Below, in pieces: positions 5,928 through 38,322 of a stretch of DNA of 64,000 nucleotides. Under the pieces are notes generated by a model, which worked only from the letters and a program-made list of their open reading frames with translations, ran no database searches and was not told the DNA's origin. Where the stretch lies: contig CAZVXT010000001.1 in NCBI GenBank assembly GCA_964631145.1, positions 393,237 through 457,236 on the forward strand. Reading direction: 5' to 3'. This stretch comes from an uncultured Candidatus Saccharibacteria bacterium. GTDB taxonomy: Bacteria; Patescibacteriota; Doudnabacteria; UBA920. Made by a program: the position numbers and the translations under genes. How positions within the stretch are numbered: position 1 is the stretch's first letter; the number at the start of each line of letters is the position of its first letter.

Positions 5928-7401
5928 AATTTTCGTCTTGATTTTGAGTTAGGCTTTGCATTACTTTGTCTGGGCTAGTATCGAAGGATCTGTCTAGATT
6001 GCGGAAAGAAGTTTTTTCTCCATCGAAGAATAAATCTACTTGACCTGTTGGTCCATTACGGTGTTTTTTGATGTGCAGTTCGGCAATATTTGGTCTACTA
6101 GACTCTTTGCCTTTATACATATCTTCACGATAAATAAACATTACAACATCGGCATCTTGTTCAATAGATCCAGATTCACGCAAGTCGGCTAATTGAGGTA
6201 CTTTATCTGGGCGATTTTCTACGCCACGAGAAAGCTGGGACAAAGCCAAAACTGGTACGTTAAGTTCGCGAGCTAAAATTTTGAGCGAGCGAGAGATTTC
6301 TGAAACTTCTTGAACACGGTTGTCTGTGTTGCGACCAGCCATTAACTGCAAATAATCAACTACAACCAAACCTAATTTGTGTTCAGCGGCAAGACGACGA
6401 GCTTTGGTTCTAATTTCCATAATATTTCCACCAGCGGCATCGTCAATATAGATTGGTGCTTCTGATAAAGTTCCCATAGCTTCGGACAGTGTTGCAAAGT
6501 CATCGTCGGTAAGCTGTCCAGTACGGATTTTCCAGAAGTCGACATTGCTTTCTGCGGCAAGCAAACGGTCTACAAGCTGGTCTTTACTCATTTCGAGAGA
6601 AAAGATTCCTGTTGGGGTTTTGGTGTGCACGGCTACATATCTCATAATATCTAGTGCTAAAGAAGTTTTTCCCATAGAAGGACGTGCGGCCAAAATAACA
6701 AGGTCGGATTTTTGTAGTCCACCAAGTTTTTTATCTAATTCTACAAACCCTGTTGGAACTCCGCGCAACTTTCCACGCTCACGATGTAGCTCGTCAATAC
6801 GCTCAAACGTTTCGTGTAAGACAGAACTAATTGGCACAAAGTTTTGTTGAAGATGCGATTGAGAAATATTAAAGAGTTTTTGTTCGGCTTTGTCGAGAAT
6901 GTTTTCAATTTCTCCTTCTTCCGAAAAAGCCATGTTTGTAATATCGTTTGCCGATTGTATAAGGCGGCGAAGAGTGCCTTTTTTGCGAACAATACTAGCG
7001 TAATAAGTAACATGAGCAGCACTTGGCACAGAGTTAACCAAGCTAGTTAGGTAACTGGTGCCACCAACGCGATCCATTTGCTTCTTTTCTTCAATATTAT
7101 TAGATACGGTCAATACATCGATAGAAACATTTTGTTCAAATAATTGAATTATTGCCTCATAAATTATTCTGTGTCTAAAGTCGTAAAAATCATCAGCTAC
7201 AATTTGATCACCGACTTTGACAATAGCATCCTTATCTAGCATAAGACAGCCTAGAAGAGCTGTTTCTGCTTCTAGGTTTTGTGGGGGTAGGCGGTCGATT
7301 GTATGGTTTCCTGTCATAAGATATTTACGCTTTAATTTTTGGTTAACTTCTTTGTCACATTTTCCGCTACTCGCTTCAGCGTACCAATAAGTACGCTTCA
7401 C
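5920..7401 (-). CDS. dnaB: replicative DNA helicase DnaB (GTG start at 7401; alternative ATG at about 7320)
   Basis: N-terminal PPQNLEAETALLGCLML and Walker A ARPSMGKTSLALDIM, with the RecA-like core and its H4/DnaB motifs. 8-nt overlap with recR. Confidence 0.9.
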   Translation of the reverse strand: MKRTYWYAEASSGKCDKEVNQKLKRKYLMTGNHTIDRLPPQNLEAETALLGCLMLDKDAIVKVGDQIVADDFYDFRHRIIYEAIIQLFEQNVSIDVLTVSNNIEEKKQMDRVGGTSYLTSLVNSVPSAAHVTYYASIVRKKGTLRRLIQSANDITNMAFSEEGEIENILDKAEQKLFNISQSHLQQNFVPISSVLHETFERIDELHRERGKLRGVPTGFVELDKKLGGLQKSDLVILAARPSMGKTSLALDIMRYVAVHTKTPTGIFSLEMSKDQLVDRLLAAESNVDFWKIRTGQLTDDDFATLSEAMGTLSEAPIYIDDAAGGNIMEIRTKARRLAAEHKLGLVVVDYLQLMAGRNTDNRVQEVSEISRSLKILARELNVPVLALSQLSRGVENRPDKVPQLADLRESGSIEQDADVVMFIYREDMYKGKESSRPNIAELHIKKHRNGPTGQVDLFFDGEKTSFRNLDRSFDTSPDKVMQSLTQNQDENFG

Positions 7402-7511
7402 TCGTTGCTCAAATGTTTTCTCGAATTTAACTCAAAAATTAAAGCATATTTTGAGTTAATTCAGAATCCTTGTTGTCATCTAATTGTAGCAAACTTTACC
7501 TTTTGTCTCAT

Positions 7512-7541: not shown

Positions 7542-7578
7542 ATTACCAGTATATTTTAAAGCTACTAAAGGGGGTTTT

Positions 7579-7881
7579 ATGAAGGCTAAAGAATCTAAAA
7601 TCAGGTTTGAATTTGAAGAAAAGATATATAATCCACACCAAGAATATCGCGGACAGATATTTAATCTAAAAATTGGATACGAATTTTTAGAGGAAGTTTG
7701 TAAATTAGTTTATAAGTTAAATAAATGTATTACTACTAGCGATAATGGATTTACTGTGATAAATACACGACCTGAAAAAAATAGTGTTAGTTTATCTGTA
7801 GTTTATAATAATAAACAGCAAATTGAAAAATTCAGAAATGCGTTAGTAGATATAAAAATACGGCTAAGCCAAAATTTATAA
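7579..7881 (+). CDS. hypothetical small protein (100 aa), first gene of a four-gene small-protein operon
   Basis: Strong SD AAAGGGGG 6 nt upstream of the ATG. No recognisable domain. Confidence 0.5.
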   Translation: MKAKESKIRFEFEEKIYNPHQEYRGQIFNLKIGYEFLEEVCKLVYKLNKCITTSDNGFTVINTRPEKNSVSLSVVYNNKQQIEKFRNALVDIKIRLSQNL

Positions 7882-8461: not shown

Positions 8462-8492
8462 AAGAGCGAATTATCGCTCTTATTTTTTTTGT
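8460..8492. terminator. bidirectional rho-independent terminator
   Basis: aaaag-agagcg-aattat-cgctct-tatttttttt, shared by the small-protein operon (+) and cysS (-). Confidence 0.6.
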
Positions 8493-9802
8493 ATTTTTTG
8501 TCCTTCAGGAGTATCTTTAAGTTCAAATCCAAAGGCTTCGATTTGCTGACGGAGCTGGTCTGATTGGGTAAAATCTTTATTGTCTCTTGCAAGTTGTCTT
8601 TGATTTAATAATTCTTGTATGTTTTCAGGAACTTCTGCATTTGGATCGTTTAATGCAATACCTAAAATTTGAGCGTACATGAGTGTATTGTCTTTGTCTT
8701 CGTTCATGATGGCAATAGCTTTTGGAGAATTTAAATTGTCATTTAGATTGGCTAAAAAATGAGGGTTTAATTGATAGTTTTCTAATCTAAGTAATGAATT
8801 GCTTAATTTATGACGAGTAATCTTTGCTGCGGTAATCGCATCCCAAGTAAAGTTGCTTTGGGTAGAATATAAGCTTTGCAAAAATAAATAGCGCAAATCC
8901 ATACCTTCAAAACCTTTATCTTCTAAGTCTTGTAATGTATAAAAATTATTTAAGCTTTTAGACATCTTTTTGCCATCTACTAACAAATGTTCAAAATGCA
9001 CCCAAGTATCTACAAATGGACCTAGAGGCAAACTTTGGGCAATTTCGTTAGTATGGTGGGGGAATATCAAATCAACCCCACCAGTATGGATATCTATCAG
9101 TTGTCCGTCAAAAGCTTTGTAATTAATTGCCGAACACTCGATGTGCCAACCAGGTCTGCCTTTTCCTAAAGTAGCATGGTCCCAAAAAATCTGTGCATCG
9201 GTATCTTCTTGCCAAGCTTTCCAGAGTGCAAAATCGCTTAAGTTATCCTTATCATACTCATCTACTTTAACTCTTGCTCCAATGTTTTTGCCTTCAAGAA
9301 ATTTTTCTCCCACGAGTTGTCCGTAATTGCCAAATTTCTCTTGATACTTTTCTATACTAAAATAAGTGCTGCCGTCTTCAGCTTTGTATGCAAAACCTAA
9401 ATCGATTAATTTAACAATAAATTCTTGTATTTCTGGTATAACATCTGTGACATTAATAAACTCTATGCTATCAATATCTACTCCAACTTTATCTAGGTCT
9501 TCTAGAAAAGTTTTTGTAAACTGCTTTGTATGTTGCTGTAGGTTTTCTACATTTGCAGTTTGTCCAAATTGAGCAACTGTAGATTTGATGGTCTTATCGT
9601 CTATATCAGTGATGTTCATAACCCATCTTACATTTTGCCCACTGGTTTTTAAAGTTCTAACTAGTAGGTCTGCCATAATAAAGCTACGCAAATTTCCAAT
9701 GTGTGCTTTGCCATATACAGTAGGTCCGCAAGAGTAAAAATTTAAAACTTCTTTCGGTGTGATTTCTTTGATTTTTTTGGTTAAACTGTCGTAAATTTGC
9801 AT
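8480..9802 (-). CDS. cysS: cysteinyl-tRNA synthetase
   Basis: Class I HIGH motif (CGPTVYGKAHIGNLRSF) and KMSKS motif (KKMSKSLNN). Confidence 0.9.
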   Translation of the reverse strand: MQIYDSLTKKIKEITPKEVLNFYSCGPTVYGKAHIGNLRSFIMADLLVRTLKTSGQNVRWVMNITDIDDKTIKSTVAQFGQTANVENLQQHTKQFTKTFLEDLDKVGVDIDSIEFINVTDVIPEIQEFIVKLIDLGFAYKAEDGSTYFSIEKYQEKFGNYGQLVGEKFLEGKNIGARVKVDEYDKDNLSDFALWKAWQEDTDAQIFWDHATLGKGRPGWHIECSAINYKAFDGQLIDIHTGGVDLIFPHHTNEIAQSLPLGPFVDTWVHFEHLLVDGKKMSKSLNNFYTLQDLEDKGFEGMDLRYLFLQSLYSTQSNFTWDAITAAKITRHKLSNSLLRLENYQLNPHFLANLNDNLNSPKAIAIMNEDKDNTLMYAQILGIALNDPNAEVPENIQELLNQRQLARDNKDFTQSDQLRQQIEAFGFELKDTPEGQKIQKK

Positions 9803-15532: not shown

Positions 15533-17314
15533 TTATAGAGTTTTATTTTTTATCTCATCAACTAGTTTATTTACAAACTCATGAACTTTAATTACACCTA
15601 AGTCTTGATCGCCGCGCCCTCTTACGGCTACGCTTTGAGCTTCCATTTCTTTATCCCCAACAACTAAAATATAGGGGGTTTTTTGTTTAGAAGCTTCGCG
15701 GATTCGCTTGCCCATGGATTCACTTCTACTATCTATATCTATTCTTGCTTCTGGATTTGCAGCTAGAATTTGCTCTTTAATTTGCTTGGCAAATTGTCCA
15801 TGCTTTTCGTCTGAAATTGGAACAATAACAGCTTGAACAGGGGAGAGCCATGTTGGCATATTGCCTGCAAAATGTTCGATTAAGAAGCCGATAAATCTTT
15901 CGTGCGTTCCTAAGGGTGCGCGGTGAATAATTGCTGGAGTCTTTTTTTGCCCATCTTGATCTGTGTATTCTAAACCAAAGCGTTTGCCCATATACAAGTC
16001 TAATTGATTGGTTGATGCAGTAAAAGATCGTCCAATTGATGAGTAAATTTGAAAATCCATCTTAGGTCCATAAAAAGCAGCACCTTCGTTTACAATCTTA
16101 AATTTGACACCAGATTTTTCCATAGCTTCTATGGTCATACGCTCTGCCTCTTTCCAGTCTTCTTCATCGCCATGATACTTATCCATCTTATTTGGATCGC
16201 GAAGAGCAAGCTCCATTTCATATTCATGAATACCTAATTGTTGATAATAATATTCATGAAGCTTGATTACTTTAACAAACTCTTCTACAGCATCTTCTCT
16301 TCTAACATATGTATGTGCATCATTCATTTGCATCCCTCTAACGCGCATTAATCCAAATAAACTACCACTATCTTCATAACGGTGGCACCAGCCGTATTCT
16401 GCGTATCTTACAGGTAAATCGCGGTAACTTTTTGGGCGAGCGGCAAAAGTCTTATGATGAAAAGGACAGTTCATTGGTTTGATATAGTAATTTTCATCTT
16501 CAATAACTATCGGTGCATACATACTATCTTTGTATAAAGGTAAGTGCCCAGAAGTATAAAACAAATCTTCTTTAGTAATAATTGGAGTTGTTACTCTTTG
16601 GTAGCCCCATTGGCGTTCTGTTTGCTTAGCCCAGTTTTCTAATTCTTCTTTGATAATATTTCCTTTTGGCAGCCATATTGGTAAACCTTTTCCAATAGCT
16701 TCATCAAAATGAAATAAATCTAACTCTTGTCCGATAATTCTATGGTCGCGCTTTTTTGCTTCCTCTAGCATTTCTAAGTGCGTTTGTAACTCTTCCGCAG
16801 TATCAAATGCTAACCCATAAATACGGGTAAGCATTTTGTTTTTTTCATTGCCGCGCCAGTAAGCGCCTGCAAGTTTGTGTAATTTAAAGCTTTGCGGATC
16901 GATGGTACTTAAATCTTCGCTGTGTCCGCCTTTGCAAAGATCCCAATAATCTCCGGATTTATAAAAACTGACTTTACTTCCGTCTTGTCTAAACTCTTCG
17001 ATTAATTCGTGTTTGTAGGGGTTGTTTGGATATTCTGCCTTAGCTTCTTCAGGTGTTAGTTCATGGCGTTCAAAAGTTTTCCAGGTAGGTAAGATTTTGC
17101 GCATAACCTTCTCGATTTTTGGCAAATCTTCCTCAGTTATTGGGTTTTCAAATTCGAAATCAAAATAAAATCCATCATCTATAGCAGGTCCAATTGTTCG
17201 TTTCGTGTTTGGGTATAGATTCATTACTGCGGCTGCTAAAAGGTGGGCAAGCGAGTGTCTTTTGTTTTGTAATTTTTCGTCTAGGATTGACATAAGTGTA
17301 TTTTTCGAGTACAA
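15533..17314 (-). CDS. thrS: threonyl-tRNA synthetase lacking the N-terminal TGS domain (TTG start at 17314; alternative ATG at 17293)
   Basis: Editing-domain HxxxH (RHSLAHLLAAAV), class II core, and the anticodon-binding region HRAPLGTHERFIGFLIEHFAGNMPTWLSPVQAVIVPI. Confidence 0.9.
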   Translation of the reverse strand: MYSKNTLMSILDEKLQNKRHSLAHLLAAAVMNLYPNTKRTIGPAIDDGFYFDFEFENPITEEDLPKIEKVMRKILPTWKTFERHELTPEEAKAEYPNNPYKHELIEEFRQDGSKVSFYKSGDYWDLCKGGHSEDLSTIDPQSFKLHKLAGAYWRGNEKNKMLTRIYGLAFDTAEELQTHLEMLEEAKKRDHRIIGQELDLFHFDEAIGKGLPIWLPKGNIIKEELENWAKQTERQWGYQRVTTPIITKEDLFYTSGHLPLYKDSMYAPIVIEDENYYIKPMNCPFHHKTFAARPKSYRDLPVRYAEYGWCHRYEDSGSLFGLMRVRGMQMNDAHTYVRREDAVEEFVKVIKLHEYYYQQLGIHEYEMELALRDPNKMDKYHGDEEDWKEAERMTIEAMEKSGVKFKIVNEGAAFYGPKMDFQIYSSIGRSFTASTNQLDLYMGKRFGLEYTDQDGQKKTPAIIHRAPLGTHERFIGFLIEHFAGNMPTWLSPVQAVIVPISDEKHGQFAKQIKEQILAANPEARIDIDSRSESMGKRIREASKQKTPYILVVGDKEMEAQSVAVRGRGDQDLGVIKVHEFVNKLVDEIKNKTL

Positions 17315-17353
17315 TTAATACTCGACTTAATGATAAATTTATGGAGGTAAAAT

Positions 17354-17557
17354 ATGAATTCTGCTGCTGCAGAAACTAAGAAAGAAGAATCAATTTTTGA
17401 GGAAGAATCAAATTATAAAGCTGTGACAATACCAGAAACAAAGTTTGCTCCGCCTGGAGCTGTTATGTGTAATTGGTGTTGCGGCGATGGTTGTAAGTCC
17501 TGCAATTATAAAGGGATAAAAACTTTTTCTTATTCCCGTGGATCTTCGATTTTATAA
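17354..17557 (+). CDS. small Cys-rich peptide (67 aa) with an acidic N-terminal half and a C-terminal CNWCCGDGCKSCNYKG cluster
   Basis: SD GGAGG 8 nt upstream of the ATG. Five Cys within 12 residues. Followed by a strong terminator. Confidence 0.5.
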   Translation: MNSAAAETKKEESIFEEESNYKAVTIPETKFAPPGAVMCNWCCGDGCKSCNYKGIKTFSYSRGSSIL

Positions 17558-17569
17558 ACAAAAAACCCA

Positions 17570-17627
17570 GAGATTAATGGTCTATTATTAGACTTCTAAT
17601 CTCTGGGGTCTTTTTTAAAGACGATTC
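17570..17627. terminator. bidirectional rho-independent terminator
   Basis: acaaaaaa-cccagagatta...taatctctggg-gtctttttt: an 11-bp perfect stem flanked by an A-run and a T-run. Confidence 0.7.
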
Positions 17628-18598
17628 CGTCCCAGCTTGCTTGCAACTTATTTGCAAGCCTTTTTATTTGATTGATTAAAAACTCCACGGTTGGTAGCCG
17701 GATCAATATTTTTAACAAAATTAGTATAGCAGTTAATTTTGAAAAAGAAAATAGGGAAAAGAAAAAGGACTAAACAATTGTTTAGTCCGAAAGGAGACAA
17801 GAGAGACAAAATATGGAAAAAGTGAGAACGGGCAAAAATAGAAAATAATGATAACAGATGAAAAGATCTCTCTTGTAAAGTATCCTCCTAAGGATATGAG
17901 GGGTGCGACACAGTAATATTACTAGTCGCTTGAATGTGCTAACTAAAAGTTAGCGTATGAGAATGAAGACAAATGTCTTGTATCTCAATTTCATTATACA
18001 CCTACAATAACACTTGTCAAGTCTTAGCAATTCAATTCAGAAATAAACATTTTTAATTACTTAATTAAGTAAACTTAGAACAACCTAGATGAGTGTTAAT
18101 TTATCCTGAGTTGGTTTGTGATTAAGGTTTGTTATATTATTAAATAAATCTAAATATTTTTTGCAAAATAAAAAGCGAAGCTGGATATGAATTGTATAAA
18201 TTAACATATAAATTAGCTTCGCGAAACATCTTTCCTTTGGGGGCAGATGTGCATTCTTCTCATGTTCCCAATTATGAGAAGACAGGAGGAATAAATATAA
18301 ATTGTATTGGGTGGATGCGACGTAAATTTAACGCACCCGCCATCTTAGATTGTTTTATAAATATAAAGTAACAACCTAAAATATTTCAAGCGAAACTGTT
18401 ATGCGTTGATGGTCTATTTCAAACAATTTAACAGACTGTATTGTCTATGGTTTCGCTTGTCTGCCATTGGCAGAAGCTTTATAATTGCAGCTTGCAAGTA
18501 AACCCTTCCGCTAATAATTAGCATTTACTTGCAAGGTTGGCGACTCTAAGAGTTAATTAACCAACAGGAGCTAGTTTGATTGCACTCTTAAGTTATGA
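17628..18598 (-). ncRNA. candidate large structured ncRNA (about 1 kb, unclassified), inferred from promoter and terminator placement and the absence of ORFs
   Basis: No ORF of 60 aa or more on either strand across about 1.07 kb between convergent genes. Many perfect hairpins: gctaact/agttagc, gcgaagct/agcttcgc, ttctcat/atgagaa, cttgcaagtaaa/tttacttgcaag. The minus-strand promoter sits at 18599-18626 and the bidirectional terminator at 17570-17627. Confidence 0.25.
17648..17676 (+). terminator. second tandem hairpin with a U-tract
   Basis: gcttgcaa-cttat-ttgcaagc followed by ctttttatttg. Confidence 0.4.
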
Positions 18599-18626
18599 AC
18601 ATTATATCTCATTTTAAGGATTTGTC
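18599..18626 (-). promoter_or_regulatory. near-consensus sigma70 promoter on the minus strand (TTGACA-N16-TATAAT) just downstream of the dnaE stop
   Basis: The minus strand reads gcTTGACAaatccttaaaatgagaTATAATg (-35 at 18621-18626 and -10 at 18601-18606 in + coordinates). It points into the ORF-free region. Confidence 0.4.
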
Positions 18627-18630
18627 AAGC

Positions 18631-21600
18631 CTATATTTGTAGCCGATCGTAGATCATGCTTACTTCTGGTATTTGCCTGAGAGCCTTGAGTAATGGCTGA
18701 GATATTCTTACGCTGGACTTGGTTTTTATGGTTTGAACAGTATCTCCATCTCCCACGCTTAAAAACACCGGCGCATTGCCAGGATTGCTTTGCAATAAAT
18801 TTTTAATAGCTTCTAAAGTTGCTGTGTTTTGTAAATTTGGAATATGAATTGTAAGCTCTGTTTGCTTCTCTAATTCTCCTAAAGCCATAAAATATAAATC
18901 ATCAGTAGGTATAGTAGATATTTCGTTGGCAATAAGTTTAGCTTCGCCATCTTTAAATGACATACGTCCAGTAAGCTTAACTACTTCATCGCTATCAAGG
19001 TAGGGAATAGCTGAAGGCATGAGTTTTGGAAAAATAATAGCTTCAACCGTACCTGTTTTGTCTTCTAGGGTTACAAACGCCATTGGGTCACTTTTTTTTG
19101 TCAGCATTCTTTTGACCTTGGCGATTGTGCCTGCAATTTTTACGCTAGTATTGTCTGATAAATTTTTGAGTGAATTTATTGTGTCGAAACCTTCGGTAAC
19201 TTTTTTGTAGTCATCTAAAGGGTGTCCGCTAACAAAAAGTCCTAAATGAGATTTTTCGAAAGAGAGTTCTTCTAAATGATTTAAAGGTTCGTGCTCAATA
19301 AGCTTTAATTTGCCAACTTGCAAGCTTTCTCCAAAAAGAGAAGTTTGTCCAGAGTTGTCTTCTTTAAAATGGGCGCGCAAAAAATCTAAAGCACGTTCTG
19401 TGTTGGCAAGAAGTGTGCCACGATCGCCAAATTTATCCATGGCTCCAGATTTTACCAGAGCTTCCCAAGACTTTTTGTTTAAGTTTCTGGTATAAACTTT
19501 AATTAAGAAATCTTCTAAGTTATCAAATTTAATGTTGGCTTTGTGGCAGTCAATAATTTGTCTTACAACTTCACTGCTTAGGTTTTTGATAGCACGAAGA
19601 CCAAAGCGAATTGTTTTATCATCAATAACAGTAAAACCTCCATAGCTTTCATTAACGTCTGGGGGTAGAACTTTGATTCCTAAGTGATTGCATTCTTCTA
19701 CTGCGTCTCTAATTTTATCCTCATCTCCACTTTCTGCTGTCATTAATGAAGCCATAAATTCTACTGGATAATTAGCTTTCATGTAAGCCGTTTGGTAGCC
19801 GACCATTGCATAGCTAGCCGAATGCGATTTGTTAAATCCATATGCTGCAAACGGTTCGATCCATGACCAAATCTGAGTAGCTTTTTCTAAGCTCCAGTTA
19901 GATGTTTCTACGCACCCTTTAACAAATTTTTCTTTTTGCTTAGCCATTTCTTCTGGAATTTTTTTACCAACAGCTTTACGGAATTTGTCCACTTCTTCCC
20001 AAGTATATCCAGCTAGATCGTGGGCAATGGTTAACAAATCATCTTGATAAACCAAGATGCCGTAAGTTCTTTCGAGGATAGCTTTTAGGGCAGGGTCTAA
20101 GTAAGTGATTAAACTAGGATTGTGTTTACGTGCTATGTATTCTGGAATAAATTGCATTGGACCTGGACGGTATAAAGCAACCATCGCAGAAATATCAAAA
20201 ATAGTGCTTGGTTTTAGTTCTTTAAGATATCTAGTCATCCCTGATGAGCCAAGCTGAAAAACGCCAAAAGTTAAGCCGCGAGAGAGCATGGCAAAAGTTT
20301 TTGGATCTGGATGAGGTAGATTTCCTAAATCAATTTTGATGTTGTGTCTGATGTTTACTAACTCAACTGCTTTTTCCAAAATAGAAAGATTACGGATTCC
20401 TAGTAAATCGAGTTTAACTACACCAATAGCGTCGCCTTGAGCGTTTACATCAAGCGCGTACATATCGTATTGAGTAATTAATTTCTTTCCTTCTGTTTCA
20501 AGTTGAATCGGAGTATAGTCGATTAATTGTGTTGGGGTTATAACAACTCCAGCAGCATGAACAGAAGCATGACGGACACATCCTTCTAGTTTTTTTGCAA
20601 TATCTAGAATTTGTTTTGTTTCGGCATCTGTTTCGTAAATGGTTTTGAATTCAGGATTAAGATCCATGGCTTTTGCTAAAGTCATTTCAAAACCTTGTTT
20701 TCCTATTGGTATCATTTTTGCGATGCGGTCGCATTTTCCATAAGGTATGGCAAGCGCTCTACCTACATCACGAACAACCGCCCGCGCTTTCATAGTTCCA
20801 AATGTCAAAATTTGGGCAACTTTGTCTTTGCCGTATTCTGTAGTCATCCATTCGATAACTTCATCGCGACGGTCGTCAGCAATATCCAAATCGATATCGG
20901 GTGGGGTAGGACGGTGCTTTGTTAAGAAACGTTCAAAAGGTAATTGGTAATAAAGTGGGTCTACATTGGTAATTTTTAATAAATATCCAACTAACGAACC
21001 TGCGGCGCTACCACGAGTATTAGTAATAGCACCGATGCGGTGCGCACCTTCGACGACATTAGCCACCATTAAAAAGTAAGGTGCAAAACCTTTTTGGCAA
21101 ATAATATCCAATTCGTAATCTACTCTGGTGGCAATTTCTTCTGGAACTGGACCATCTTTACCGTATTTCTCTTTCATTAGTTGATGGGTTTTTTCAACTA
21201 AATAACTCTCATCAGTGTAACCTTCAGGAATTTTAACTCTAGGGAAATATCTTTGATTGGTAGGGATTTCTATGTCTACCATGTCTGCAATAATTTGAGT
21301 GCTTTCTATAGCTTCGGGGATGTCTTTAAATTTTTCATACATTTCTTCTGGGCTATTAAAGGACAGGTCGTGTCCTCGCATATCAAGTCTATTGGTGTCG
21401 TTTACAGTTCTTCCTGTGCCAATGCAGACCATAATATCTTGAGCTTCCGCATCATCTTTATGCAAATAATGACAATCTTGCGTAGCAACAACTCTAACAT
21501 TATTTTTCTTACCAAGCGCAATTAGCTTTTCATTAGGTTGTAATTCGTGACCATCATTGCTGTTGCGTTGTAATTCTAAGAAAAAATGCTCTTTATCAAA

Positions 21601-22089
21601 AATATCTAAATACTCTTCCAAAGCAGTTTGCGCGGCTTGTTCTGATACTTTAAAAGCGCGAGGGATTTGTCCACGAGGACAGCCTGATAAAGCAATGATC
21701 CCAGTGCTATGTTTTTTAAGAAGTTTTAGGTCGATTCTTGGTTTATAGTAGTAACCTTCAAGGTGCGCTTCAGAAGTAAGTTTAACTAAATTAAGATAAC
21801 CTTCGTAATTTTGAGCTAGCAATGTTAAATGATGATAGTCCGCATCTATTTTTCCTTCTTTTACTTCCATGCCGCGCGGTGCAATATATGCCTCAATACC
21901 AATAATTGGTTTTATGTCATTATTTTTGCATTGGTTGTAAAAATCTATGGCACCATACATAACGCCATGGTCTGTAATTGCAACCGAGGACATTCCGTAT
22001 TCTTTGGCGAGGTTTACCAAAGCTGGGATCTGAGAAAGTCCATCTAATAGGGAATAGTGAGAATGGCAATGTAGGTGGGTAAAGTTCAT
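18631..22089 (-). CDS. dnaE: DNA polymerase III alpha subunit
   Basis: 1152 aa. PHP domain MNFTHLHCHSHYSLLDG, polymerase core, and OB domain. Confidence 0.95.
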   Translation of the reverse strand: MNFTHLHCHSHYSLLDGLSQIPALVNLAKEYGMSSVAITDHGVMYGAIDFYNQCKNNDIKPIIGIEAYIAPRGMEVKEGKIDADYHHLTLLAQNYEGYLNLVKLTSEAHLEGYYYKPRIDLKLLKKHSTGIIALSGCPRGQIPRAFKVSEQAAQTALEEYLDIFDKEHFFLELQRNSNDGHELQPNEKLIALGKKNNVRVVATQDCHYLHKDDAEAQDIMVCIGTGRTVNDTNRLDMRGHDLSFNSPEEMYEKFKDIPEAIESTQIIADMVDIEIPTNQRYFPRVKIPEGYTDESYLVEKTHQLMKEKYGKDGPVPEEIATRVDYELDIICQKGFAPYFLMVANVVEGAHRIGAITNTRGSAAGSLVGYLLKITNVDPLYYQLPFERFLTKHRPTPPDIDLDIADDRRDEVIEWMTTEYGKDKVAQILTFGTMKARAVVRDVGRALAIPYGKCDRIAKMIPIGKQGFEMTLAKAMDLNPEFKTIYETDAETKQILDIAKKLEGCVRHASVHAAGVVITPTQLIDYTPIQLETEGKKLITQYDMYALDVNAQGDAIGVVKLDLLGIRNLSILEKAVELVNIRHNIKIDLGNLPHPDPKTFAMLSRGLTFGVFQLGSSGMTRYLKELKPSTIFDISAMVALYRPGPMQFIPEYIARKHNPSLITYLDPALKAILERTYGILVYQDDLLTIAHDLAGYTWEEVDKFRKAVGKKIPEEMAKQKEKFVKGCVETSNWSLEKATQIWSWIEPFAAYGFNKSHSASYAMVGYQTAYMKANYPVEFMASLMTAESGDEDKIRDAVEECNHLGIKVLPPDVNESYGGFTVIDDKTIRFGLRAIKNLSSEVVRQIIDCHKANIKFDNLEDFLIKVYTRNLNKKSWEALVKSGAMDKFGDRGTLLANTERALDFLRAHFKEDNSGQTSLFGESLQVGKLKLIEHEPLNHLEELSFEKSHLGLFVSGHPLDDYKKVTEGFDTINSLKNLSDNTSVKIAGTIAKVKRMLTKKSDPMAFVTLEDKTGTVEAIIFPKLMPSAIPYLDSDEVVKLTGRMSFKDGEAKLIANEISTIPTDDLYFMALGELEKQTELTIHIPNLQNTATLEAIKNLLQSNPGNAPVFLSVGDGDTVQTIKTKSSVRISQPLLKALRQIPEVSMIYDRLQI

Positions 22090-30283: not shown

Positions 30284-30844
30284 CTATTCAGCTTTAATAA
30301 TTTCATTATATTTAGCTTGGTATTTTTTTAAGCTCTCAGCTAATTGGATAATTTCTGTGTAAGTAAGATCGTTTATTTTTTCATTATCCATATAGATAAA
30401 AATTTTATTATCCGATAATTCGGTAAAAAGACGAGCGATTTTTTCATTTTCAAAAAGATAGTGAAATGCTTCGCTAAGAGAGTTCATTTTTTCCTTAGAT
30501 GTGAAATCTTGTAGAACTTCTGCTTTTATGGGACAAATATCAAGAAAATTTTGAATAATGATTTTGAAATCTGCTTCTAATTCAAGCATTTCTTTATGTT
30601 TATTATCTAAATCTCTCCAATACATTATTACAAAGTCTTTAACCTGCATAGAACAAGATTTATCGATCTTGTCAAAATTAAATTTAAGTTCCTGCTTTAT
30701 ATGATGCAGTTCGATTAGGCTTTTGAATATGACAATTTGTTCTTTTTCAATTTGCGTTTTCCAAACTTTTCCTACTAGTTTGTTTATTTCTTGTATAATA
30801 TATTCTTGTATAACTTCTAACTCAGCTTTTTGTGGCTTTGGCAT
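30284..30844 (-). CDS. hypothetical protein (start moved to the ATG at 30844, which has a GGAGG SD)
   Basis: The minus strand reads tatatGGAGGacaacaATGccaaag. No recognisable motif. Confidence 0.45.
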   Translation of the reverse strand: MPKPQKAELEVIQEYIIQEINKLVGKVWKTQIEKEQIVIFKSLIELHHIKQELKFNFDKIDKSCSMQVKDFVIMYWRDLDNKHKEMLELEADFKIIIQNFLDICPIKAEVLQDFTSKEKMNSLSEAFHYLFENEKIARLFTELSDNKIFIYMDNEKINDLTYTEIIQLAESLKKYQAKYNEIIKAE

Positions 30845-30992
30845 TGTTGTCCTCCATATAAATTGAATTGCTAACACAGAATTATAGAATAAATATGTCT
30901 AGTTGTCAATTAATCAAACTTTATATCTATGTATAAAGAGTTGATTTATATTTAAAATTAGCTTATAATATTACGAAATATAAGGAGGCTTT

Positions 30993-33088: not shown

Positions 33089-33132
33089 TTATAATTTTTC
33101 TTAAACCATATTTTGACAAAAACATCAAATAT

Positions 33133-34602
33133 ATGTATAATAAAACCATGAATAATGATAATACAAAATTTCCAACTGCCAGCGATGGTATTAGATCATT
33201 TCTAAAAATGGACCCACAGGAAACTGTGGATAATAATGCTTTGGCACAGGATCCAGCAGATATGGCACAAAAAATAGAAAGCGTGCAAAGCGGTATTATC
33301 GGTGCATCTGAACCCGCTGTAAAACCTCCTATAGATCTTCCCATTGCGACTCCAGAAAATACCACCACTAATCCAGACAAACCTAATGCCACTTTAGAAA
33401 GTGATCAGCCTCAGGTTTTGAATGGGCATAGCATGCAAGGCGTGGAAGATATGGCAAAAGAAGTAAATGCTGCTGGTAATTTTGGTAGTGGTCTTTTTAG
33501 TCTGTTTAAAAAAGTTTTGCCATTATTGGCAATTTTTGTAATAGGCTTAGGACTATATTATTTTTATTTTAGTGATTTTAGCTTTTCTAGTTTATTAAAC
33601 TCCAATACTTTAAAAATTGAATCTGTAACTCAATTACAAACTGACAAAAATTTGGAGACATTAAAAAATGATTTAAAAAGTGATTACGACACATGGATTA
33701 AACAGTTTTTTGTAGATGTAAACGATTCTGCAATTATTGATATGGATGCTGATGTTTCTGGTAATGGTTTAACTAACATAGAAAAATATTTATTGAATCT
33801 TAATCCAACTGTGTATAGTACTCGTGGTAATCTGAGCGATGGGCAATGTGTTATTGAAGGCACCAATCCCTGGACTGGCAAAGCTTTTACGGACAAACAA
33901 AAAGCCTTAATTGAAAAATATATCAATAAAGAAAATATTAGCAATCGTATTACTGCTGCTGCTTTAACTAGAGGTGTAACCAAATACGCTCAATATGTGA
34001 ACAGTGATTCTCCGTACTATATTGATCCTCAAACCATTAGAGAGTTACAAGCTACAAATCCAGTTATCACCACTCCTGGCAATAGCATTAATAATGGTTC
34101 TCAACCCGTTTCTACAGCTCCAAGTAATATTAAAATAGGGGACGAGATTGATCAGTCTGTTCCTGGGTTAGTAGAAATTCCTGCGCAAAAAGTTTCTGTG
34201 CCATTAATATGGACACAGGACACTAAAAATTTTGATTCAGATTTAAAGAAGGGTGTTGTTCATTATCCTGGGACGGCTATGCCCGGTGAGGTTGGTACTG
34301 CTTATATTTCTGGACACTCTAGCGGATATCTTTGGGATAAGAGCTCGTACAAACAAGTTTTTGCAGTTCTGGGAAATGTTAAAGACGGTACATCGTTTAG
34401 CATCACAGCTACTCAAAAAAATGGAAAGAAAATACGCTATAACTATGTTGTGCAAAGAAGAGGCGAGTATGCAGCAGATGATCAGGCTCAGTTTGCCAGC
34501 ACAGCAGAATCAGTAGTTGCATTATCAACATGTTGGCCGCTTAACACAACTGCCCGAAGATTGGTTATATTTGGCGTATTAACTCAAACAGAAAATTTGT
34601 AA
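33133..34602 (+). CDS. sortase-family transpeptidase with a long (about 330 aa) N-terminal extension and a TM anchor
   Basis: The C-terminal domain carries the catalytic His (AYISGHSSG), the Cys in LSTCWP, and the Arg in RRLVIFG. The TM helix is LPLLAIFVIGLGLYYFYF. Confidence 0.75.
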   Translation: MYNKTMNNDNTKFPTASDGIRSFLKMDPQETVDNNALAQDPADMAQKIESVQSGIIGASEPAVKPPIDLPIATPENTTTNPDKPNATLESDQPQVLNGHSMQGVEDMAKEVNAAGNFGSGLFSLFKKVLPLLAIFVIGLGLYYFYFSDFSFSSLLNSNTLKIESVTQLQTDKNLETLKNDLKSDYDTWIKQFFVDVNDSAIIDMDADVSGNGLTNIEKYLLNLNPTVYSTRGNLSDGQCVIEGTNPWTGKAFTDKQKALIEKYINKENISNRITAAALTRGVTKYAQYVNSDSPYYIDPQTIRELQATNPVITTPGNSINNGSQPVSTAPSNIKIGDEIDQSVPGLVEIPAQKVSVPLIWTQDTKNFDSDLKKGVVHYPGTAMPGEVGTAYISGHSSGYLWDKSSYKQVFAVLGNVKDGTSFSITATQKNGKKIRYNYVVQRRGEYAADDQAQFASTAESVVALSTCWPLNTTARRLVIFGVLTQTENL

Positions 34603-34775
34603 ATTATTTAAATTATCTTTTAATTGAACTGCTCAGTAATAACTTATTAACACTCATCTTATGTGCTACACTTTCTTAATTTTTGCTAATCGCAAAAATG
34701 GAAAGCTGTGCACAGAGGATTCATTTATAATAAATTATTACTGAGTTATAAATAAACAATAACCTGTAATTCTTC

Positions 34776-34806
34776 AAAAAAGCACAATTTTTAGTGCTTT
34801 TTTATT
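34776..34806 (+). terminator. rho-independent terminator after the sortase gene
   Basis: aaagcac-aattttta-gtgcttt followed by tttatt. Confidence 0.55.
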
Positions 34807-34821
34807 ATTTCTCAATGACTA

Positions 34822-34850
34822 TTGACAAAAGTACAAAATTATGTTAATAT
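34822..34850 (+). promoter_or_regulatory. sigma70-like promoter TTGACA-N17-TAATAT followed by a leader of about 250 nt
   Basis: ttgaca at 34822-34827 and taatat at 34845-34850. The leader contains the long-range pairing caccgc...gcggtg and a ggcaaac element. Confidence 0.45.
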
Positions 34851-35101
34851 ATTATTTAATCATTAAATAAGGATAAGTCCTTGCATATAAGTTAAAAACC
34901 AGTTAATATGCTCAGTTATTGATAAATATTAGGTTTTAGATAGGTTTTTGCTCACTACCGCTGTTATATTACTTTAGGCAGTTTTGGTAAGTGGGCAGTA
35001 ATTTGTCTAACACCGCTTGTAGGTTTAAGGCAAACGCCGCACCATAATATGGGCGGTGAAAGACAAAAAATCAAAAAATAAAAAATTCTAAGGAGTGGAA
35101 A

Positions 35102-36460
35102 ATGAAAAATTTAATTAGTTTAATTATCGTTGTTTTAGTTTTATTTGGTGCGGCAGGGGTTACGAAGGGTCAAAATCAAATTGTTAATTTTGAAGTTTGG
35201 GCAGGAGATTTACAATTTGCAATTACTAAGTGCGGGGCACTGCCTAAAGCACAAATTAATATTGCAGAAGATTTGTATAATCCTCCTTTAGACTCCGAAC
35301 CTAAAGCCTTTACCAAAAAAAAGATGCAGTTTCGTGCACTTACTTGTATGTGGACCGGTCCAACAACAAAGTGGGCTTGGAAATATACCATAGAAGGTTC
35401 TTTATATGGTTTTGATAAAGCTGGAAATTTAATATCCTACGAAGGGACCCCTGACGGAAAGTTTAATGCTTGCCATAACAGAGTTCTGGTAGTAATTTAT
35501 CAAAAAGCTCAAATTGGAGAACCTGAAGAAGACAAAACACCAATGTGTCCAAATCAGCCATATACTGGAGTCGCTATTGCTAATGTTAAAAATTTTGGCT
35601 TGATGATTAATGATCAAGGTCAATGTGTTACGCAACCTCCACCTCCTGCAAATTACTGTAAAACTGTAAACGGTGCTGCTAATATTAATCAATTAACAAT
35701 TGACCAGGTTAACGCAATGCCAGGTTGGGAAGTTGTTGGTGATAAAGAGTGTCGAACTAAGCAAGAGCCAGTTTGTGATAGCATTGATGGGCAAGCTAAT
35801 TCTACAGGCATAACTGTAAAAATGGCGAAAGCCATGGGTTATCAAGTCGAAGGTGGTAAATGTTTTAAACCGGAACCAATATGCCAGACAGTCAAGCAAA
35901 ATGGACAAGTAGTCAATACTTATTTGACTATTAAAGAAGCTATTGCCCAAGGTTACAAAATTGATAAACATCAAGGATGTGAACTTAAAGGTAGTGGTGG
36001 TTTCTGGTCTGGATTTGCTAGAGTCGCATGTGGTGCCGGAACTGGTTTTGCACTTGATGCTATTAGAACTGGTAACATATTCAGTATGCGTTCATTAGGA
36101 GCTGCTGGTATGGGAGCCGCAGGTGGTTTTGCTACATTTGGTATTCCGTGGGCTAAAGATTCTAGTCATTGGTTTACTGGCTGTGCTGGTGGTTTAACAG
36201 TATTATTATTACCTCCTGGAAAGGATGGTAAATGTGCTGCTGATCAAACTCCGGTATATGGTAGTGACGGTAAGACTTTGATTGCATGCGGAACCAAAAC
36301 TTTGCTCCCAGGTGATACCACTGGCGGAGTTAATAAGCCTCGGGTCCTACTAGGCTTTGCCGGTGAATCTACAGTAGGCGGTAGCCAAACTAATAACAAT
36401 AAGCCCGATGAACCTGCTCCTAAAAAGAGCAAGGTCTCGGTGGATGGAAATCCTTATTGA
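35102..36460 (+). CDS. secreted Cys-rich protein (452 aa)
   Basis: Signal peptide plus more than 20 Cys. A Gly-rich segment (GAAGMGAAGGFATFG) and a basic C-terminus. Confidence 0.55.
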   Translation: MKNLISLIIVVLVLFGAAGVTKGQNQIVNFEVWAGDLQFAITKCGALPKAQINIAEDLYNPPLDSEPKAFTKKKMQFRALTCMWTGPTTKWAWKYTIEGSLYGFDKAGNLISYEGTPDGKFNACHNRVLVVIYQKAQIGEPEEDKTPMCPNQPYTGVAIANVKNFGLMINDQGQCVTQPPPPANYCKTVNGAANINQLTIDQVNAMPGWEVVGDKECRTKQEPVCDSIDGQANSTGITVKMAKAMGYQVEGGKCFKPEPICQTVKQNGQVVNTYLTIKEAIAQGYKIDKHQGCELKGSGGFWSGFARVACGAGTGFALDAIRTGNIFSMRSLGAAGMGAAGGFATFGIPWAKDSSHWFTGCAGGLTVLLLPPGKDGKCAADQTPVYGSDGKTLIACGTKTLLPGDTTGGVNKPRVLLGFAGESTVGGSQTNNNKPDEPAPKKSKVSVDGNPY

Positions 36461-36683: not shown

Positions 36684-37355
36684 ATGAAAAAAATCTTAGG
36701 TATCGTTTTTTGTTTGGCGATTTTTACTGGGTTTACATTTGCTCAAAGTTCCGGTTCTTGGAAAGTTACCAAATGTTGGAACCCGCAAAAGCAAAAATAT
36801 TATGACTGCTATGAACCTGTTAATAGTTCGGCAAATCCGGGGCAGCAAAATACCGCTCAAGTCAAAAATAATTCCAATTCTGGCAGCGGTAACCAAGTGA
36901 TTGTTAATGGTAATAATAATATTGTTAACATCGGCGGATCTCAGCCAGGCTATCGACCTGGTTCTCAGGCACCATCTAATCAACAACAAGAGCCGCAAAG
37001 ACAACGTCGGCAAAATAATATTGTTTATAACAACGCGGATCCTTATAATGGGGAAGTTGTTTACGGAAGAAATTACAACAACTCTTATGATAATGGGTAT
37101 GAATGCAATAATCGTTGCCAGGAACAAACCAGGCTTAGTAATTTGCCCATTCAGCATACTCAGACTGTGCGAACGGTGCAGCAACGAATAATTCTAAACA
37201 GCAATGACCCTTATACGTGGAGTCGAGGTAGAAATATTCCAAGTGCGAGTTATGAAATTCGTATCAATCAGCAAACCGTTAAGGTGCAAAGCAATACTAA
37301 TAATCCGCCGTTTATTAGGGTTGATGACAGCGGTGGTTGGTATTATTACCAATAG
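36684..37355 (+). CDS. secreted N/Q-rich low-complexity protein (start at the ATG after the AAGGGGG SD)
   Basis: Signal peptide MKKILGIVFCLAIFTGFTFA. Long Asn/Gln/Gly tracts. Confidence 0.55.
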   Translation: MKKILGIVFCLAIFTGFTFAQSSGSWKVTKCWNPQKQKYYDCYEPVNSSANPGQQNTAQVKNNSNSGSGNQVIVNGNNNIVNIGGSQPGYRPGSQAPSNQQQEPQRQRRQNNIVYNNADPYNGEVVYGRNYNNSYDNGYECNNRCQEQTRLSNLPIQHTQTVRTVQQRIILNSNDPYTWSRGRNIPSASYEIRINQQTVKVQSNTNNPPFIRVDDSGGWYYYQ

Positions 37356-37375
37356 TTGTATCTAGATTTATTATT

Positions 37376-37413
37376 TAAGCGTAAAAGATATTATTTCTTT
37401 TGCGCTTTTTTTA
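37376..37413 (+). terminator. rho-independent terminator
   Basis: aagcgtaaaag...cttttgcgctt followed by ttttttt. Confidence 0.55.
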
Positions 37414-37599
37414 TCCTATCAACAATTCATATTATAAATGGGCAAACTATATACAACACACCAATTTATCAAATAAAATATTATATGACATTTGTGTTCC
37501 GGATAATTCGGCTTTCATAATATCGAGGATTTTTTATAACCCTCGATTATTTCTGGTATAATGATTAAAAGGTTTATCTTAAATTACTAATATTTTACG

Positions 37600-38322
37600 A
37601 TGAAAAAACTGTCCGTAATTATCCCTGCTTATAACGAAGAAAAGCGTATTGCAGAGACATTAACCAATATTGATCAATATTTAGAAAAGCAAGCCTATGA
37701 CTACCAAATTGTAGTTGTGGTTAATAATAGTCATGATAAAACTTATGATGTAGTTAAGGAGTTGGAAGGCACTACTATCCAAAAAGCAACTGCTATGAAT
37801 CTTGTAGAGGGCGGGAAAGGTAATGCTGTAAAAAGAGGTATATTAGAAGCGGCAGATGGAGATGTTGTAATGTTTATGGATGCTGATAATGCTACTCCAA
37901 TATCAGAAATTGAAAAGTTTTTACCATATTTTGACCAAGGCTATGATGTAGTAATTGGATCTCGTTACACTAATCCGGAATTGGTTAAAGTACACCAGCC
38001 AATGTATCGAATTGTATTATCAAGATTAAGTAATTTATTGATACAATTTTTAGCAGTTCCTGGAATCAAAGATACTCAGCTTGGATTTAAAGCATTTACC
38101 AAAGAAGCAGCTCAAAAGATATTCCCTATGGTTACAGTTCTTCGTTGGGGATTTGATATGGAAGTTTTAACTATTGCTCTAGCTAGAGGTTATAAGGTAA
38201 AAGAAGTAGGTGTGTCTTGGACAGAACATGGCGGCGGGCATGTTCCATTAAAAGCTTACATAGAATCATTAATTGATTTATTAAAAATCAAATTTAGATC
38301 TATAACAGGTAAATATAAATAA
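37600..38322 (+). CDS. GT2 polyprenol-phosphate glycosyltransferase (DPM1/GtrB-like)
   Basis: LSVIIPAYNEEKRI and VVMFMDADNAT (DAD motif), the typical DPM-synthase-like core. Confidence 0.8.
   Translation: MKKLSVIIPAYNEEKRIAETLTNIDQYLEKQAYDYQIVVVVNNSHDKTYDVVKELEGTTIQKATAMNLVEGGKGNAVKRGILEAADGDVVMFMDADNATPISEIEKFLPYFDQGYDVVIGSRYTNPELVKVHQPMYRIVLSRLSNLLIQFLAVPGIKDTQLGFKAFTKEAAQKIFPMVTVLRWGFDMEVLTIALARGYKVKEVGVSWTEHGGGHVPLKAYIESLIDLLKIKFRSITGKYK

Follow-up and report, generated by a model that had tools for sequence, protein, structure and literature searches.

The gap between dnaE and thrS

In the 64,000-nt stretch of contig CAZVXT010000001.1 analysed here (the window), the genes dnaE and thrS are separated by a gap of 1.07 kb (17558-18630), and the question is what such a long interval encodes. 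The original prediction was a single minus-strand transcription unit of about 1 kb, considered a candidate large non-coding RNA. Our analysis indicates that the gap is probably made up of a T-box leader of thrS and two independent minus-strand units upstream of it, designated Unit A and Unit B. The order on the minus strand is dnaE (18631..22089), the gap, a 67-aa Cys-rich open reading frame (ORF) on the opposite strand (17354-17557), and thrS; thrS also follows dnaE, in the same orientation, in the relatives. The DnaE protein is 63-72% identical to proteins of Doudnabacteria-like or 'Saccharibacteria'-labelled metagenome-assembled genomes, and judged from its sequences the host is a Doudnabacteria-like bacterium of the Patescibacteria (candidate phyla radiation, CPR). 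Loci of other genomes are cited below by L numbers.

The gap is the largest in the window between ORFs of at least 100 aa. It was confirmed to be ORF-free in the sense that 17558-18630 contains no ORF of at least 60 aa starting with ATG, GTG or TTG, the longest having 59 aa (18192..18371, plus strand), and a scan of the gap for small ORFs found none with a convincing ribosome-binding site and start codon. The gap is also unusually structured, as had been proposed. For the region 17790-18595 the folding z is -9.1 (minus strand) and -6.9 (plus strand), and the most extreme of 63 sampled 300-nt segments (17701-18000, z = -7.3) lies inside the gap, the sampled background from roughly the first 44 kb having a mean z of -0.8 with a standard deviation of 1.9. 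Most of the perfect stems listed earlier were found, for example the 12-bp stem 18491-18502/18524-18535; those located include arms of 28 nt at 17557-17584/17589-17616 and the pair GGACTAAACAA/TTGTTTAGTCC at 17767-17788.

The promoter previously seen after the dnaE stop codon was confirmed as TTGACA-N16-TATAAT (minus strand, 18628..18601), matching the consensus at 12 of 12 positions. Perfect consensus promoters occur four times in the 64 kb, against 0.15 expected, and two of the four are in the gap. The other two are both TTGACA-N17-TATAAT: one (30881-30909, minus) directly precedes the ORF 30284..30877, and the other (33113-33141, plus) overlaps the listed start (33133) of a sortase-domain ORF (33133..34602). 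Their positions before genes support such matches being real promoters in this genome. Overlooked in the original prediction were the promoter 18020..17993 and the minus-strand terminators 18222..18164 and 17788..17757. The predicted promoters and terminators, together with the lack of a coding signal, agree with a non-coding gap that looks transcribed on the minus strand, but the two internal terminators and two internal promoters divide the supposed single unit into three.

No Rfam family reaches its threshold in the gap and ARAGORN was negative, in line with the earlier failure to recognise RNase P, tmRNA, SRP or 6S RNA by eye. The covariance search against Rfam that had been suggested as a check gave nothing relevant in 17300-18900 at E <= 10, nor in the spacers of relatives. 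The whole 64-kb window had zero Rfam matches at the gathering threshold and no tRNA or tmRNA by ARAGORN.

A probable T-box leader of thrS

The minus-strand segment 17714..17556 is very probably the T-box leader of thrS, a T-box-type sensor of tRNA-Thr. The features of the leader and its gene are as follows.

17723..17731, minus strand: extended -10 promoter of the T-box (TGCTATACT), read from the sequence
17677..17714, minus strand: ultrashort Stem I of ~38 nt, with C-stem UAAAAAU/GUUUUUA, 3-nt bulge AUU, tandem G.A (kink-turn, K-turn) and CGG/CCG
17697..17691, minus strand: apical 7-nt loop of Stem I, CUACCAA, with the putative specifier ACC (Thr codon) at 17695..17693, then A
17639..17665, minus strand: purine string AAAAAG and Stem III (GCUUGCAA AUAA GUUGCAAGC, 17659..17639), then AAG
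17635..17631 with 17607..17603, minus strand: antiterminator helix A1, CUGGG with CCCAG
17630..17623, minus strand: T-box bulge of 8 nt, ACGGAAUC
17603..17635, minus strand: whole antiterminator, including helix A2, GUC(UUU) with (AAA)GAC
17556..17610, minus strand: T-box terminator, with 5' arm 17609..17597, 3' arm 17576..17566 and U-run 17565..17556
15533..17293, minus strand: thrS, ATG at 17293..17291, with Pfam domains tRNA-synt_2b, HGTP_anticodon and tRNA_SAD

A TATAAT-like -10 box is found at the matching position in relatives, in most cases preceded by TG. Stem I ends at the specifier loop, and a long Stem I with distal platform (AG bulge, distal loop, interdigitated T-loop motif, IDTM) is absent. 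The linker from Stem I to the purine string has ~11 nt in the window and ~11-17 nt across the sequences, and neither a Stem II nor a IIA-B pseudoknot is present in the window leader or in the aligned relatives. The discriminator domain of T-boxes carries the motif 5'-RRRxG-Stem III-AA-3' (PMC7583486), and the arrangement AAAAAG, Stem III, AAG fits this published domain. The tRNA-Thr(GGU) genes in L001, L004 and L034 have the anticodon loop AUGGUAA, the discriminator U73 and an encoded CCA. This anticodon loop is complementary to UACCA, U73 to the A of the bulge [C/U]GGA, and C74-C75 to its GG.

The 3' strands of both A1 and A2 sit inside the 5' arm of the terminator, so that the two folds are mutually exclusive. 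The folding energy is -22.9 kcal/mol for the terminator and -8.7 kcal/mol for the antiterminator, which is the usual asymmetry of T-boxes. On the plus strand, the same terminator hairpin also ends the convergent 67-aa ORF. The 'bidirectional terminator' of the original prediction is thus present, but it is the terminator of the thrS T-box and not the end of a ~1-kb RNA. Similarly, the 'second hairpin with a U-tract' exists, but it is Stem III of the T-box, its plus-strand U-tract being complementary to the purine string AAAAAGG. The best local Rfam match, RF04312 (trpB motif; plus strand, 35 bits against a gathering score of 59), was rejected, as it is the reverse complement of Stem III and the terminator and is driven by the hairpins and the U-tract.

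We infer that the T-box controls thrS. In the proposed mechanism, the anticodon of uncharged tRNA-Thr(GGU) would pair with ACC in the apical loop, while U73-C74-C75(-A76) would pair with the [C/U]GGA of the bulge. Binding of the tRNA would stabilise the antiterminator (CUGGG/CCCAG and GUC/GAC) over the stronger terminator, and the polymerase would read on toward thrS. With charged tRNA, the terminator would be allowed to form.

Conservation and covariation of the leader

When the gap was compared by nhmmer with 80 dnaE loci from GTDB genomes, similarity was found solely at ~17557-17833. In the relatives the conserved segment is found between dnaE and thrS, and in L002 and L034 the thrS start follows it immediately. 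The T-box shares the sense strand of thrS. In L002, L034, L165-L171 and others thrS comes next after it; the window and L163 have a convergent 67-aa gene between the T-box and thrS.

A common architecture was observed in all of the first seven sequences: a K-turn-based hairpin (C-stem, 3-nt bulge, tandem G.A) with the 7-nt loop C[U/C]ACCAA; a linker rich in A that finishes with AAAAAG; a hairpin whose sequence is free; (A)ACUGGGA[C/U]GGAANCGUC and an A/U-rich loop; and then AGACCCCAG, the 5' arm of a long terminator that carries a U-run. A covariance model (R1) was built from these seven sequences, and eight further relatives were fetched via their DnaE proteins. R1 matched the element in all 14 close-relative loci searched (E 1e-7 to 1e-31), including 8/8 of the added relatives (E 1e-7 to 1e-22).

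In the resulting 15-sequence alignment of Stem I and the antiterminator, 95% of the cells are paired and compensatory changes occur in 10 of 18 pairs; none of 500 shuffles reached the observed value, and slid controls gave at most 54% paired. The seven-sequence version of the pairing test gave support too. Compensatory changes were seen in five of the six C-stem pairs, in one pair of A1 (100% paired) and in two pairs of A2 (95% paired). Counting of terminator pairs on the model-derived alignment was uninformative owing to register shifts.

The C-stem of the K-turn, the 3-nt bulge and the tandem GA/GA are invariant across the sequences, and the specifier loop reads C[U/C]ACCA[A/C], the specifier check having covered thrS leaders only. 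The 15 sequences share AAAAAG-G[Stem III]-(A)A(C/G), in which the sequence of Stem III varies and the hairpin is always formed. The bulge has the consensus A[C/U]GGAA[U/C/A]C. Insertions in Stem III were observed in L163 (~200 nt, ~7545-7790) and L170 (~130 nt, ~6950-7085), and an extra hairpin in L006 (3500-3560).

Weaker matches to R1 were obtained directly upstream of thrS in distant CPR genomes (L052, L013, L060, L105, L075 and L057). The canonical T-box sequence GGGUGGAACCGCG is present in most of these distant leaders (L052, L013, L075), and the same three carry the hairpin loop GGCUACCAACC. RF00230 matches the L052 leader with E = 3e-5 and 30 bits against a gathering score of 93, the aligned part being the antiterminator and the T-box sequence. 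The distant leaders (L052 6749-6905, L013 7290-7478, L075 6130-6300, L105 8851-9025, L057 6239-6424, L060 14962-15086) vary in their 5' domains: L052, L013 and L075 have an apical ACC hairpin within a larger junction, and a K-turn hairpin that lacks ACC is present in L105, L057 and L060. All of these distant CPR thrS leaders are far below the Rfam threshold.

Candidate small RNAs downstream of dnaE

Upstream of the T-box, Units A and B each run from a strong promoter to an intrinsic terminator, have no coding capacity, and are candidate clade-specific small RNAs (sRNAs). Their predicted features are as follows.

18633..18631, minus strand: dnaE stop codon
18628..18623 and 18606..18601, minus strand: promoter P_A, TTGACA and TATAAT with a 16-nt spacer, starting 3 nt after the dnaE stop
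18164..18594, minus strand: predicted Unit A RNA, ~430 nt, a hairpin chain, its start deduced from the promoter, its end from the terminator
18477..18535, minus strand: 12-bp hairpin (18535..18491), then the single-stranded motif CUGCAAUUAUAAAG (18490..18477; core GCAAUUAUA)
18164..18222, minus-strand specific: intrinsic terminator of Unit A, GCGAAGCU...AGCUUCGC, then UUUUUAUUUUG, -13.1 kcal/mol
17993..18020, minus strand: promoter P_B, perfect TTGACA-N16-TATAAT
17757..17986, minus strand: predicted Unit B RNA, ~230 nt, with a UUAGGAGGAUAC hairpin and a pyrimidine-rich loop
17876..17867 with 17806..17797, minus strand: long-range 10-bp helix of Unit B, ACAAGAGAGA/UCUCUCUUGU
17788..17757, minus strand: terminator of Unit B, GGACUAAACAAUUGUUUAGUCC and U-run

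Folding gave z = -6.1 for Unit A (60 dinucleotide shuffles) and z = -8.5 for Unit B, and the 177 nt between the terminator of Unit A and the start of Unit B are not over-folded (z = +1.2). The ~870 nt of 17757-18630 contain no Rfam match, no protein remnant and no convincing small ORF, and no repeat was found when 17740-18640 was compared with the window itself. Unit A would be an independently promoted sRNA that also serves as the dnaE 3' untranslated region (UTR) and terminator, with the hairpin-flanked GCAAUUAUA as a likely functional element (seed or protein-binding).

A perfect 14-nt inverted repeat, CTGCAATTATAAAG, was observed at 17500-17513 (plus) and 18477-18490 (minus), these being its sole exact copies in the 64 kb. 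One copy lies in the 67-aa ORF, antisense to the thrS 5' UTR, and the other coincides with the conserved Unit A motif. A Unit A sRNA could in principle pair with the thrS leader through this repeat, but relatives do not conserve it and the idea was dropped.

In the relatives with the closest DnaE (about 68-72%, except L001 and L005), the spacer from dnaE to the T-box has 234-715 nt, compared with 911 nt in the window; in five relatives (L001, L003, L004, L006 and L034; DnaE 63-71%) it has only 26-85 nt. Most of the ten longer spacers open with a sigma70-like promoter only a few bases from the dnaE stop (L165 and L169 have a -10-like box only), with TAG-RC-TTGACA in the window, L168 and L170, and each of the ten ends in an intrinsic terminator. 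Eight of the ten contain the motif GCAAUNAUA, seen as GCAAU[A/U/C]AU[A/C] and placed 0-7 nt after a hairpin of free sequence, and three have it twice; hairpin and motif lie about 110-190 nt after the promoter. L171 has two promoter-terminator units, as in the window. The predicted RNAs of the relatives (200-450 nt) are strings of local hairpins that share no global fold. These features suggest that the post-dnaE locus would be a positionally conserved, fast-evolving sRNA locus that is also the dnaE 3' end, with Unit A as the local copy.

Pairwise alignment with the L002 spacer was not significant (score 42 against a shuffle maximum of 44). Two further motifs, CUGUCUUCUC and GAGGGUUAAU, recur in subsets of the spacers in inconsistent order and were not used as evidence of homology. 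GCAAUNAUA was also considered as the -10 box (TATNAT) of an antisense promoter; there is no conserved -35 box or TG extension, and this is regarded as a minor possibility.

Points against the three-part reading and alternative explanations

Several observations weigh against a thrS T-box preceded by two independent units. For the T-box, the first base of the bulge is C and not the canonical U in 13 of the 15 sequences (U in two), which would leave A76 unpaired or in an A.C wobble; the base pair of A2 is G-C and not the G.U wobble of canonical T-boxes; RF00230 has no match on the window or the L034 leader, even at E <= 10; and ~260 nt and the convergent 67-aa gene separate the T-box terminator from the thrS ATG. 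Control of thrS in the window would need read-through across this antisense gene. For Units A and B, no alignable homolog was found by nhmmer or blastn of 17740-18640 against 171 loci, the start sites and ends of the units are predictions only, and the motifs shared among the spacers were defined post hoc, after viewing the data. The 3' GUUCUC similarity to relatives is located in Unit B and not in Unit A, so that one-unit and two-unit homology are both possible.

It is also possible, though we consider it unlikely, that the upstream part is a fast-drifting spacer with no RNA function, in which the hairpins are merely terminators or insulators and the promoters are incidental or pervasive. Two 12-of-12 promoters within 1 kb, at an expectation of 0.15 per 64 kb, are difficult to explain in this way, as is the promoter that most relatives with a spacer keep at a fixed place behind the dnaE stop. 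A drifting spacer would account for the lack of sequence conservation beyond short motifs, for lengths ranging from 26 to 911 nt among the relatives, five of them being without a spacer, and for the beads-on-a-string hairpins of the predicted RNAs; it would leave unexplained GCAAUNAUA in eight of ten spacers, at a chance rate that we roughly estimate as ~0.03 per spacer, and the restriction of the folding excess to the predicted units.

One large structured RNA of ~0.83-1.04 kb, running from the promoter 18601..18628 to the terminator at 17788..17757 or 17616..17556, is very unlikely in our assessment. Its strong promoter follows dnaE and 17790-18595 is over-folded as a whole, but the internal terminator 18222..18164, the second perfect promoter 18020..17993 and the 177 nt between them, which are not over-folded, speak against it, and the final ~170 nt form an independent T-box under a promoter of its own. 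In single-unit relatives, the 5' motif (hairpin and GCAAUNAUA) matches Unit A and the 3' motif, GUUCUC ahead of the terminator, matches Unit B, so the window could hold one expanded RNA; the relatives' own RNAs, however, are 200-450 nt long and consist of local hairpins with no shared global fold. With the large ornate RNAs (OLE, GOLLD, ROOL, HEARO, raiA) the gap shares a long ORF-free interval and strong predicted structure, but it has no match to an Rfam large-RNA family at any threshold tried, even E <= 10, is split by terminators and promoters, and has no conserved multi-helix core, so that the earlier suggestion of an OLE/GOLLD/ROOL-like RNA is not upheld.

An eroded protein gene, such as the maturase or partner of the Cys-rich peptide proposed earlier, is extremely improbable: although the region is gene-sized, lies beside a small Cys-rich ORF and has stop-to-stop frames of up to 80 aa, a search of 5.8 billion sequences with its 28 stop-to-stop segments of at least 18 aa from six frames gave no protein match at E <= 0.1, none of its ORFs shows a start codon and ribosome-binding site that convince, and the relatives carry non-coding spacers at the corresponding place.

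Relation to known T-boxes and small RNAs

The thrS T-box resembles in part the T-boxes with short or ultrashort Stem I of the Actinobacterial ileS type (PMC7583486). The likeness consists of an apical-loop specifier on a short Stem I above a K-turn, the absence of a tRNA-elbow platform (IDTM), and the discriminator domain (purine string of Stem III, A1, bulge and A2). Those T-boxes are mostly translational and all known members have a Stem II/IIA-B domain, which is optional in T-boxes at large but present in most, whereas the window leader has a linker of ~11 nt and ends in an intrinsic terminator, and would therefore act on transcription. It further differs in standing before thrS, in belonging to Patescibacteria, and in a bulge that is usually CGGA and not UGGA. 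Actinobacterial ileS-type T-boxes with short or ultrashort Stem I were reportedly described by Sherwood et al. in 2015.

With the glyQS-type T-box, the leader shares the lack of Stem II, a flexible linker after the K-turn and a transcription terminator/antiterminator switch; glyQS, however, combines a long Stem I, whose specifier occupies a side bulge, with a distal double T-loop platform, where the window has a ~38-nt Stem I with an apical specifier. The likeness to RF00230 comes through the antiterminator and T-box sequence of L052, while the window and L034 leaders are unmatched. Transcriptional T-boxes generally need a long Stem I, and a short Stem I works with Stem II (PMC7583486). The T-box database TBDB was built with RF00230 and a model for Actinobacteria only (PMC7778990), and since cataloguing rests mainly on these two, leaders like that of the window would be missed. 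A search of one paper library found no paper linking T-boxes with CPR or Patescibacteria; an earlier description elsewhere is possible.

The sRNAs derived from 3' UTRs in enterobacteria, such as DapZ and MicL, are independently promoted. Likenesses of Units A and B to this type would include a promoter at or after the end of the coding region, a terminator shared with the upstream mRNA, and a short conserved single-stranded element beside hairpins. The predicted RNAs of this locus differ in being long (200-450 nt) and poorly conserved and in belonging to another phylum.

Taken jointly, the thrS leader may represent a minimal class of transcriptional T-box not described so far (apical specifier on a K-turn, neither elbow platform nor Stem II, CGGA bulge) and the post-dnaE RNA a clade-specific family of structured sRNAs whose sole fixed element is the hairpin-flanked GCAAUNAUA. 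We put this combined proposal forward tentatively, as possible but short of probable.

Other features of the locus and the window

The region has an identical copy (100%) in an NCBI record and a Logan assembly, the longest contig having 653,896 bp, and is therefore no assembly oddity. No closer strain was found: a scan of JGI metagenomes gave at best ~55% over the full-length protein, and the next-best dnaE in a protein search had 72%.

The ThrRS (threonyl-tRNA synthetase) of the window is 67% identical to that of L075, though the DnaE of L075 has just 47%, and the genomes whose DnaE is closest have ThrRS proteins only 43-53% identical to it. The T-box, unlike ThrRS, resembles those of the DnaE relatives. 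This suggests that the native leader may have been kept while the downstream thrS was replaced.

The 67-aa Cys-rich ORF has the pattern CxxCCGDGCxxC...GIK, and with its promoter spans 17287-17557 (plus) of the window. It is preceded by a GGAGG Shine-Dalgarno sequence and its own TTGACA-17-TACAAT promoter, which overlaps the thrS start codon. A homolog of the same size (67 aa) with CxxC...CxxCGGTGIK stands at the same position in L163 (7823-8026). The product is probably a genuine small zinc-ribbon protein, with transcription running antisense to the thrS leader.

The interval upstream of the gene cysS (8480..9802, minus) is only ~98 nt long and could not accommodate a T-box of the thrS-leader type. 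Other over-folded 300-nt segments on the minus strand were 34501-34800 (z -5.7), 1601-1900 (z -5.2), 7201-7500 (z -4.5) and 37301-37600 (z -3.9). They coincide with or adjoin other large ORF gaps, such as the 500-nt gap 34602-35102 after the sortase-domain gene, and none has an Rfam match at the gathering threshold.

Implications

The two units upstream of the T-box point to an RNA locus, unannotated but strongly promoted, in a lineage with poorly known non-coding RNAs. If the proposed T-box is real, it manages with fewer tRNA contacts than all T-boxes characterised so far, and a natural transcriptional T-box without a long Stem I or Stem II would test the current view of what such T-boxes require. 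It would also offer a very small tRNA-sensing module for engineering. For the organisms themselves, the leader suggests that even the tiny genomes of CPR bacteria may retain tRNA-charging feedback on thrS.

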